Assembly: GCA_902772585.1 (NCBI GenBank)
Contig: CACYBB010000018.1
Location: forward strand, 363-64,362
Direction of reading: 5' to 3'
Origin: an uncultured Bacteroidales bacterium
Lineage (GTDB): Bacteria; Bacteroidota; Bacteroidia; Bacteroidales; Bacteroidaceae
DNA: 64,000 bases
Shown: piece after piece, positions 44,019 to 46,035 of the stretch
How positions within the stretch are numbered: the first letter of the stretch is position 1
Layout of the letters: each line of letters starts with the position of its first letter
Notes under the pieces: generated by a model
Seen by the model: the letters and a program-made list of their open reading frames with translations, nothing else
Told to the model about the DNA's origin: nothing
Databases searched by the model: none
Translations under genes and position numbers: made by a program

Positions 44019-44053
44019 AAGGAGCGTGCCGAAAATCCTTAGAAGAGTAGGCA
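44019..44053 (+). ncRNA. Small pseudoknot-forming intergenic motif, copy 1
   Basis: AAGGA-GCG-TGCC-GAAAA-TCCTT-AGAAG-AGTA-GGCA; 33/34 identical to 46001-46034. Confidence 0.65.
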
Positions 44054-44070
44054 ATTAAAACGTAAATAAA

Positions 44071-44772
44071 ATGAAAAAGTTTTTTCCCCAGTTGGTACTT
44101 GTAGTAATTACTCTTATGTTACCGCTAAACAATTATGCTCAAACAGATGCGACCATCGATAATGCAATGAAAATGACAAAAGGTGGTAGGTTTATTGATA
44201 CGAATTATAAGGTAACAAAACCTTTATTTGGTGCTATCCTAAATGGGAAGAATTTTCCATTAGATGAATCCAAATGTAAAGTTACATTTGAAATCGTTAA
44301 TTTCGGGAATGAAGGAAATACAGTTATTATAACATTTGATATTGGTGATGGAGAAGTTTATTCATATTCTTGGTCTGGAACAAACCTACATGTAGCTCCT
44401 GCGTATGACAGCGGAATGGGACATTTAGCCGTAGTAAGAGGTAATAATACTGCTTGTGGCGCTTTATCAACAATGAAAGGAAAGTGGGTAGTTACGATAA
44501 ACACGGGTTCTGATACATACACCATCAGTGATATCAAAAAAGGTATGACACGTGCCGAAATAGAAACTAAAACCAAAGAGCTTGGTCTTAGCCAGTTCAA
44601 GTTTAATGGAAATAGTGGGAAGTTAAAAGTTTACTCCCTTCTTTGGCTAGACCAAAAGAAAGTTTATAACTATTTTGGTGATTATCATTATCAACTGAGA
44701 AATGATAAAAAGTATGGTGATTTTTATTTTGATGACCAAGGGAAATTAGTCAAATGGTTACTTTATATGTAA
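44071..44772 (+). CDS. Secreted hypothetical protein
   Basis: Signal peptide; IKKGMTRAEIE (SmpA/BLIP-like) motif. Confidence 0.75.
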   Translation: MKKFFPQLVLVVITLMLPLNNYAQTDATIDNAMKMTKGGRFIDTNYKVTKPLFGAILNGKNFPLDESKCKVTFEIVNFGNEGNTVIITFDIGDGEVYSYSWSGTNLHVAPAYDSGMGHLAVVRGNNTACGALSTMKGKWVVTINTGSDTYTISDIKKGMTRAEIETKTKELGLSQFKFNGNSGKLKVYSLLWLDQKKVYNYFGDYHYQLRNDKKYGDFYFDDQGKLVKWLLYM

Positions 44773-44813
44773 TTTCATTTTTGCCTATCCAATAGTAAAA
44801 CTATATGTATAAA

Positions 44814-44870
44814 AAGCGAGTGATTATAGTTCATAAAGTTACGATTGCTTATATTAATTGGAAGTAATCA
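44814..44870 (+). ncRNA. Variant of the pseudoknot motif with compensatory changes
   Basis: AAGC-GAG-TGAT..GCTT..AGTA-ATCA. Confidence 0.4.
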
Positions 44871-44971
44871 TTTATACTCTGAGCGAAATATACATAATAT
44901 ATAATAATGAGACTTATGATGTAAATAGGCCCACTTCATATAGTCTTAACTTGTGGCCGACTAGAACAGTT

Positions 44972-45271
44972 ATGGAGAATCAAGAACAAGCACAGGATTC
45001 TTTTGTGATGAAGCCAGACAACCATATGGCTTTGGCGATTTTTACAACAATTTGTTGTTGCCTTCCATTGGGAATTGTTGCAATAATTAAGGCAAACAGT
45101 GTAGACTCTCTCTATATAGGGAAGCAATATACTGCAGCTATAATGGCTGCCAATGAGGCAAAGAAATGGAGCTATTGGGGAATTTTCTCAAGTTTAATAA
45201 TCTGGATAATTTATCTTCTTTTCTTTGGTGGTATTGCGGTCTTGGGCGGAATTATGGCTTTACATGGATAA
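44972..45271 (+). CDS. CD225/dispanin (IFITM-like) membrane protein
   Basis: KPDNHMALAIFTTICCCLPLGIVAII..A..A..AKKW motif; ATG 44972. Confidence 0.88.
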   Translation: MENQEQAQDSFVMKPDNHMALAIFTTICCCLPLGIVAIIKANSVDSLYIGKQYTAAIMAANEAKKWSYWGIFSSLIIWIIYLLFFGGIAVLGGIMALHG

Positions 45272-45643
45272 ATGAAAAAAATGACATTTGTCATATTTCT
45301 TGTAGTATTAGGTGGGATTCTCTTATACAATCTCAATCCCACTCAATATTGGTTTATGCCAAAATGTCCTTTCAAACTGATAACAGGGCTAAACTGTCCA
45401 GGATGTGGTATACAAAGAGCTATTTATGCTCTAATGCATGGGGAGATAAAAGAAGCGATACATTATAACTATTATCTTCTTTATTCAGGTCCTTATGCAG
45501 CATCTTTCCTCTTGGTGTGGTTGTTGCCTCAAAACAGTTTCCGAGGTAAACTTAAAAGTATAATAGAAAATAAACATGTTGTAGATTTCTATATAGTAAC
45601 TTTTTTGATGTGGTTAGTCATTAGAAACATTTTTAACTTGTAA
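45272..45643 (+). CDS. DUF2752 membrane protein
   Basis: CPFKLITGLNCPGCGIQRA motif. Confidence 0.88.
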   Translation: MKKMTFVIFLVVLGGILLYNLNPTQYWFMPKCPFKLITGLNCPGCGIQRAIYALMHGEIKEAIHYNYYLLYSGPYAASFLLVWLLPQNSFRGKLKSIIENKHVVDFYIVTFLMWLVIRNIFNL

Positions 45644-45646
45644 CAT

Positions 45647-45976
45647 ATGGATATAAATCAAGCAAATCAATTATTGGCTCTTTACGGAAATCGTCTTCCT
45701 ATTGAGTCTATGGAAATGGCAAAAAACAAATTGCTAAGTATGGACCATAGTGTCGCTTCAATTCGTATGGCGCAGTTCAAAGATCCTACAATGGCATTAA
45801 TATTATCCGTGATTGTAGGTCCTTTAGGAGTTGACAGATTCTATATTGGTGATGTCGGGTTGGGAGTCGGAAAACTCTTAACTTGTGGTGGTGCCTACAT
45901 TTGGTGGTTAATCGATCTCTTTATGATTCAAGATGCAACCAAAAAGAAAAACTTGGAATTATTGCTAATGTTTTGA
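45647..45976 (+). CDS. TM2 domain protein
   Basis: LGVDRFYIG..GKLLTCGG..WWLIDLF motif. Confidence 0.9.
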   Translation: MDINQANQLLALYGNRLPIESMEMAKNKLLSMDHSVASIRMAQFKDPTMALILSVIVGPLGVDRFYIGDVGLGVGKLLTCGGAYIWWLIDLFMIQDATKKKNLELLLMF

Positions 45977-46000
45977 CCTTTATTAATTATTGCAAATCAA

Positions 46001-46035
46001 AAGGAGTGTGCCGAAAATCCTTAGAAGAGTAGGCT
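46001..46035 (+). ncRNA. Small pseudoknot-forming intergenic motif, copy 2
   Basis: AAGGA-GTG-TGCC-GAAAA-TCCTT-AGAAG-AGTA-GGC. Confidence 0.65.

Follow-up and report, generated by a model that had tools for sequence, protein, structure and literature searches.

Two DUF805b RNA motifs in a Bacteroidales genome: family membership, a predicted pseudoknot and a putative role at translation start sites

Two motif copies in front of unrelated genes

A 34-nucleotide (nt) sequence, AAGGAG(C/T)GTGCCGAAAATCCTTAGAAGAGTAGGC, occurs twice in the stretch of DNA analysed here, which comprises 64,000 nt of contig CACYBB010000018.1 (positions 363 to 64,362, assembly GCA_902772585.1) from an uncultured Bacteroidales bacterium and is referred to below as the window. 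The two sites, at 44019-44052 and 46001-46034 on the forward (+) strand, are the only ones in the window; they are identical at 33 of 34 positions, with C/T at position 7 as the sole difference, and no match was found in 100 shuffles of the window. The repeat had already been noticed in an earlier reading made from the letters alone, without database searches (hereafter the sequence-only reading), and our search recovered it exactly as described. Both copies are ordinary members of DUF805b, an RNA family that is already known and catalogued in Rfam (RF02914) and whose function is putative.

Each copy occupies a short spacer between genes of the same strand, in sense orientation. Copy 1 begins 17 nt past the stop codon of the open reading frame (ORF) 43309-44001 and ends 18 nt before the ATG at 44071, and copy 2 begins 24 nt past the stop codon of a TM2 gene (45647-45976) and ends 9 nt before the ATG at 46044, the distance to a second, in-frame ATG at 46056 being 21 nt. 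Except for a few A's that both have on the 5' side, the likeness between the copies is confined to the motif itself, the flanks being unrelated; the proteins encoded downstream, of 233 and 250 amino acids (aa), are not paralogues, in agreement with the earlier claim that the motif ends shortly before the starts of unrelated genes. The features of the two sites are the following.

44019..44053, + strand: DUF805b RNA motif, copy 1, 35 nt; 40.8 bits (E 3.8e-8) with RF02914, 55.9 bits with our own model R1
44020..44039, + strand: P1 hairpin of copy 1; pairs 44020-44039, 44021-44038, 44022-44037 and 44023-44036
44028..44052, + strand: predicted P2 pseudoknot stem of copy 1; GCC at 44028-44030 with GGC at 44050-44052
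44054..44070, + strand: A/U-rich linker that leads from copy 1 up to the ATG; 18 nt when measured from the last P2 base (44052), as read from the sequence
44071..44772, + strand: downstream gene 1, 233 aa; N-terminal signal peptide (MKKFFPQLVLVVITLMLPLNNYAQ) with a hydrophobic N-terminus, no Pfam family
46001..46035, + strand: DUF805b RNA motif, copy 2; 38.6 bits (E 2.2e-7) with RF02914, 54.1 bits with R1
46002-46005 with 46018-46021 (P1) and 46010-46012 with 46032-46034 (P2), + strand: predicted stems of copy 2
46044..46796, + strand: downstream gene 2, a DUF6591 lipoprotein (Pfam PF20234, E 7e-7), signal ...MMTILLTSC

In copy 1, P1 encloses the loop L1 (GCGU), the 5' strand of P2 and the invariant GAAAA (44031-44035), and a fifth A-U pair, 44019-44040, is possible; P2 could likewise be extended by a pair U44027-A44053, and GAGUA, also invariant, occupies 44045-44049. 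In copy 2 the fourth P2 position holds two opposed U's that do not pair. The sequence-only reading had drawn a P1 of AAGGA/TCCTT crossed by a P2 of TGCC/GGCA: P1 and a crossing P2 are present in both copies, but the four-pair P2 can form only in copy 1, since copy 2 reads GGCU on the 3' side and is left with the three pairs GCC/GGC.

Family membership and covariation of the predicted pseudoknot

The DUF805b motif reportedly goes back to the 2017 survey of Weinberg et al. In Rfam it is placed in the cis-regulatory class and in clan CL00115, with a model of 35 positions and a gathering score of 35.6 bits. A cmscan search of the whole window at the Rfam gathering thresholds, a check that the sequence-only reading had proposed, returned three matches, namely one tRNA and the two DUF805b copies, both of which exceed the gathering score and cover model positions 1-35 of 35. 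No further DUF805b copy was found in the 2.86-Mb genome, so that these two constitute its total, and a genome-wide search with the DUF805 model (RF03081, 68 positions) came back empty at E<=1. The tentative link to the DUF805/DUF805b motifs in the sequence-only reading is therefore right: cmscan places both copies in RF02914, and they do not match DUF805, the longer sister family. At the two sites a relaxed search (E<=10) returned DUF805b only, with no match to preQ1-I/II/III, SAM-II/V, guanidine-III or any other riboswitch model.

The two copies show the family traits throughout. Both carry GAAAA as loop L2, GAGUA in the 3' part of L3, a P1 of AGGA/UCCU and a crossing P2 of GCC/GGC; the 4-bp P1 hairpin encloses a 12-nt segment with CCGAAAA, and each copy lies on the sense strand just 5' of a protein-coding gene. 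The family is presumably associated with genes for DUF805 or TM2 domains; neither kind is found downstream of either copy, and the TM2 gene of this locus lies upstream of copy 2. Such an association is a correlate of the family and does not enter into the Rfam model.

Homologues were collected by searching with RF02914 in two sets of 151 genomes each, one from the same family and one from the phylum; 67 genomes of the first set and 45 of the second gave matches, a single genome carrying as many as 11 copies, frequently in tandem gene arrays. The 98 distinct homologues were aligned (alignment A4) with a covariance model of our own that encodes P1 only; because P2 was left out of the model, the alignment is not fitted to P2. 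Over P1 and P2 together 96.1% of the cells are paired, versus 70.5% in shuffles, none of the 500 shuffles reaching the observed value, and when the 3' partners are slid by 1-3 columns at most 58% of the cells pair. Two-sided changes occur at all seven pairs (four in P1 and three in P2). All four P1 pairs covary, with 94% of cells paired, and P2 (columns 19-21 with 64-62) is paired in 98.9% of cells: its first pair is GC in 52 homologues, UA in 26, AU in 5 and CG, GU and UG in one each, its second CG in 97 and UA in one, and its third CG in 85, UG in 8 and UA in 5. An H-type pseudoknot in the DUF805b copies, as the sequence-only reading had predicted, is well supported by this covariation; the opposite case considered there, of homologues that keep the sequence and not the pairing, is contradicted. 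The same P2 covariation (UCC/GGA, ACC/GGU, CCC/GGG, GCU/AGC) is found in 49 copies from viral contigs.

The architecture of the family thus comprises a P1 of 4-5 bp, an L1 of about 4 nt, a P2 of 3 bp (NCC/GGN), L2 = GAAAA and an L3 ending in GAGUA, the length of L3 varying by up to about 8 nt across homologues. Some 14 of the 35 positions are at least 97% invariant phylum-wide, GAAAA and GAGUA among them, and these lie in loops rather than in stems.

The host is a rumen Prevotella (Bacteroidota), as judged from its sequences: its GuaA is 94% identical to that of uncultured rumen Prevotellaceae RUG genomes, and sequencing runs from bovine rumen contain the locus. The neighbourhood is that of an ordinary chromosome, with guaA and genes for an acetyl-xylan esterase, a Ser/Thr kinase and transglutaminase-like proteins among others.

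Position, downstream genes and neighbourhood

Measured from the last P2 base, the ATG of the next ORF lies at a median distance of 22 nt among the homologues and within 15-28 nt in 81 of 97, as it does in 31 of 47 viral copies; the intervening linker is A/U-rich and too short for a terminator. This regularity is a practical aid in the choice of start codons. The true start of the DUF6591 gene is probably ATG 46056 rather than ATG 46044, because its distance of 21 nt is close to the modal (20 nt) and median values, while 9 nt would be the shortest among the 97 homologues; a start at ATG 46056 keeps a good lipoprotein signal (MRKCIFCCIVMMTILLTSC).

On the upstream side, 26 of the 98 copies have an exact Bacteroidetes -7 box (TAnnTTTG) no more than 80 nt away, mostly at 10-33 nt, compared with 3.7% of control windows. 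A same-strand ORF ends at most 60 nt before 18 of 96 copies, as it does before both window copies. By these sequence signals, DUF805b is placed both behind predicted promoters and inside predicted operons. Within the window, exact boxes occur at 42947-42954 and 43009-43016, upstream of the gene at 43309, and at 45896-45903, inside the TM2 gene and 98 nt before copy 2. RNA was sampled through Logan contigs of three bovine rumen RNA libraries (shares 0.06-0.08), in which uncovered stretches carry no meaning; these contigs match parts of 45175-45432 and of 46190-46753 with 100% identity, and DUF805b copies of other organisms are among them.

Among 89 sampled downstream genes, OMP_b-brl is represented by 16, and the others include DUF3575, TRL, DUF6591, YceI, type IX secretion system (T9SS) cargo and a rhodopsin; a DUF805 gene follows the motif in only one. 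Hydrophobic N-termini are found in 53 of the 89 (60%) versus 41% in a crude ORF control, and about a dozen products are small peptides with a double-glycine (GG) leader or of a 'NAPxGSYAAGCP' type. The downstream set is very diverse and consists mostly of predicted exported proteins (barrels, lipoproteins, GG-leader peptides).

The small peptides, of 43-79 aa, stand behind many DUF805b copies among the relatives, often in tandem arrays in which each gene has its own motif; some carry the GG leader, others form a conserved 'NAPxGSYAAGCP' family, and both kinds look like precursors of bacteriocins or of ribosomally synthesized and post-translationally modified peptides (RiPPs). The loci concerned are listed here under their sample numbers.

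L030, L028, L074, L070, L085 and L053: peptide-linked DUF805b loci
L051 (4082-4264, 6503-6712) and L052 (2357-2521, 6006-6161): peptide-linked loci
L025 (1359-1490, 1556-1720), L043 and L057: further peptide-linked loci

The viral copies come from IMG/VR contigs, where 80 loci (L132-L211) found by a pattern scan were examined; only the 49 that the model confirmed are counted as DUF805b, about half of the loci having failed this check. Several viral contigs carry two or three copies, for example L168, L148, L193 and L204.

The sequence-only reading had further proposed a third copy at 44814-44870, a real but diverged member of the family in which both stems had been replaced by compensatory pairs. 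The letters it described are present (AAGC/GCUU and UGAU/AUCA) and fit the pattern P1-GNG-P2...P1'...AGTA-P2'. However, by Markov shuffles one expects so loose a pattern (4-nt P1, GNG, 4-nt P2, P1', AGTA, P2') to turn up 0.45 times in a 64-kb window, and 13% of shuffles hold at least two matches, the observed count with the real copy 1 included. The region scores at most 1.5 bits on the + strand with the unfiltered covariance model, has no Rfam match at E<=10 and lacks the family invariants CCGAAAA and GAGUAGG (hence GAAAA and GAGUA); its L2 would measure 22 nt versus the invariant 5 nt, and it lies 101 nt from the next start (CD225, ATG 44972) versus 15-28 nt in the family. In its minimum-energy fold the bases proposed for P1' and P2' are taken up by two plain hairpins, with a z of -1.33, which is not significant. 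The CD225, DUF2752 and TM2 homologue loci recovered (L121-L124, L129-L131), those of other Prevotella among them, have no DUF805b within 1.5 kb on either side; a comparison with 60 genomes of the genus showed no DNA-level conservation of the locus of the supposed copy; tblastn of the window proteins against the collected homologue loci found distant relatives of DUF2752 and DUF6591 only; and the contig of a related strain diverges upstream of 44902, a weak point. On model score, invariants, L2 length, distance to the start and pattern statistics we reject it as a chance look-alike, and a genuine third member seems to us exceedingly improbable. The same region contains, at 44840-44847, a -7 box with one mismatch (TACGATTG), which could be the promoter of the CD225 operon.

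That operon (44972-45976), situated between the two motif copies, comprises three genes for small membrane proteins (CD225/dispanin-like, DUF2752 and TM2). A DUF2752 gene is found in two other genomes (L033 and L040) about 1 kb upstream of a DUF805b-led gene for an outer-membrane barrel, and a paralogue of the TM2 gene elsewhere in the genome (L131) is without the motif. Further upstream, 40125-40787 encodes a 220-aa protein with a weak match to a CdiA_C-like toxin domain (26.3 bits, just under the cut-off of 26.6), adjoined by a Ser/Thr protein kinase gene (41122-42300). Downstream of the DUF6591 gene, 46797-47573 is a non-coding nest of dispersed repeats (also at about 51479-51564 and 51936-52016) with no match to an Rfam family. 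It includes a unit of roughly 430-455 nt (about 46960-47415), present in at least 10 genome copies of 84-93% identity, many of them at contig ends, and units of about 80 nt (46834-46919, 47422-47506) that match both strands and have the look of miniature inverted-repeat transposable elements (MITEs); depth in a DNA run jumps there from about 12 to 140-200.

A putative role in translation initiation and comparison with known RNAs

Bacteroidia lack functional recognition of Shine-Dalgarno (SD) sequences and depend for initiation on unstructured A-rich leaders (PMC7797042, PMC6847099). Given the fixed spacing to the ATG, the absence of SD use and this dependence on A-rich leaders, we infer that DUF805b acts in cis on translation initiation. 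The folded knot would act on the initiation of the next cistron: with the start codon in the P site, a structure beginning about 20 nt upstream would sit at the mRNA exit of the 30S subunit, on the platform side, where it could help, position or gate the loading of the ribosome. The AAGGAG at the 5' end of the copies was considered as a ribosome-binding site in its own right and rejected, because it is the 5' strand of P1, because its fifth base is variable (A in only 28 of the 98 homologues) and because Bacteroidia ribosomes make no use of SD sequences (PMC7797042). Taken as a whole, the explanation that combines membership of DUF805b, a 35-nt H-type pseudoknot and a putative cis role in translation initiation is one that we hold to be highly probable.

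Several points weigh against this explanation. In nine of the 98 homologues L1 is one base shorter and, by eye, the third P2 pair is mostly A-A. Nested-only folding of the two copies is not stabler than that of shuffles (z = 0.02 and -0.40), although these scores say little either way because the folding program cannot model pseudoknots. The translational role is deduced from position only; the RNA contigs are weak evidence, showing no starts, ends, strand or level; and the enrichment of signal peptides downstream is modest and was measured against a crude control. A full-text literature search for DUF805 retrieved no paper on the DUF805b RNA and no functional study of it, and the main text of the 2017 survey (PMC5737381) makes no mention of DUF805b.

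As to what reads the knot, the mixed gene set and the presence of DUF805b in phages incline us towards the ribosome or a protein and away from a metabolite. A bolder form of the translational explanation, which we put forward tentatively and regard as rather unlikely, is that DUF805b serves Bacteroidota and their phages as a substitute for the SD sequence, its pseudoknot docking where the mRNA exits, either on the platform of the 30S subunit or on a ribosomal protein such as bS1, and acting as a ruler of about 21 nt. If this were true, the ruler would bring the start codon into the P site and would enhance or gate the translation of strongly expressed exported proteins, its targets being outer-membrane barrels, lipoproteins, bacteriocin-like GG-leader peptides and phage genes.

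Given a comparably low probability is an orphan riboswitch, in which a putative small ligand (a second messenger, an ion or a purine-like compound) would stabilise the knot and thereby change how the following cistron is translated, in the manner of the 34-nt preQ1-I pseudoknot. The concentration of highly invariant positions in the loops is typical of binding pockets, the pseudoknot covaries, and as many as 11 copies in one genome are reminiscent of a regulon. Mixed sets of envelope or secreted genes are known for second-messenger riboswitches as well. On the other side, the downstream genes share no common metabolic or transport theme, the motif is frequent among viral contigs, inspection of the A/U-rich linkers by eye reveals no alternative 'off' pairing, and the two sites match none of the riboswitch families in Rfam.

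We consider it improbable that the motif is an element of mRNA processing or stability, that is, a cleavage mark in polycistronic transcripts or a guard of the new 5' end of the downstream cistron. The location of both window copies and of 18 of 96 homologues in short gaps after a same-strand gene would suit such an element, as would the short distance between the knot and the predicted 5' end in copies that have a -7 box; however, it would not need an ATG spacing fixed within about 3-4 nt, and this role is therefore less consistent with the data. We give very little credence to a site that works at the DNA level (promoter, operator or recombination site) or to a recent local duplication without RNA structure. 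The 33/34 identity of the window copies, in a family that keeps only about half of its positions invariant, could be the product of copying or gene conversion from one site to the other, but a DNA-level role is contradicted by the compensatory changes in two crossing stems. Further points against this explanation are the variable length of L3, the constant sense orientation at a fixed distance from the ATG, conserved blocks only 9 nt apart, unlike the -33/-7 promoter geometry, and the unrelated flanks and downstream genes of the two copies.

For this window, the outcome amounts to two more members of a catalogued family and is of little consequence. The family itself is an orphan pseudoknot of 35 nt, conserved phylum-wide, in which about 14 bases are invariant and from which the start codon is some 21 nt away, in a lineage that ignores the SD sequence; the reader of DUF805b, if found, would inform the choice and tuning of start sites in Bacteroidota and their phages.

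Compared with known systems, the window copies show no structural difference from DUF805b (RF02914), sharing its P1, GAAAA, GAGUAGG and Bacteroidota host, and differ in what they precede, a family-less signal-peptide protein and a DUF6591 lipoprotein instead of DUF805 genes. The DUF805 RNA (RF03081) is a related leader motif of the same clan, of which the copies represent the short 'b' form instead. The preQ1-I riboswitch aptamer is a 34-nt H-type pseudoknot that controls translation. DUF805b resembles it in the manner of working only, with a similar size and topology, an A-rich 3' loop running into a short P2 and a location near the start codon. The two have no similarity of sequence or model: L2 has five invariant nt in DUF805b as against 0-1 in preQ1-I, and DUF805b, whose genes are not related to queuosine, ends about 20 nt from the ATG and not over an SD sequence.

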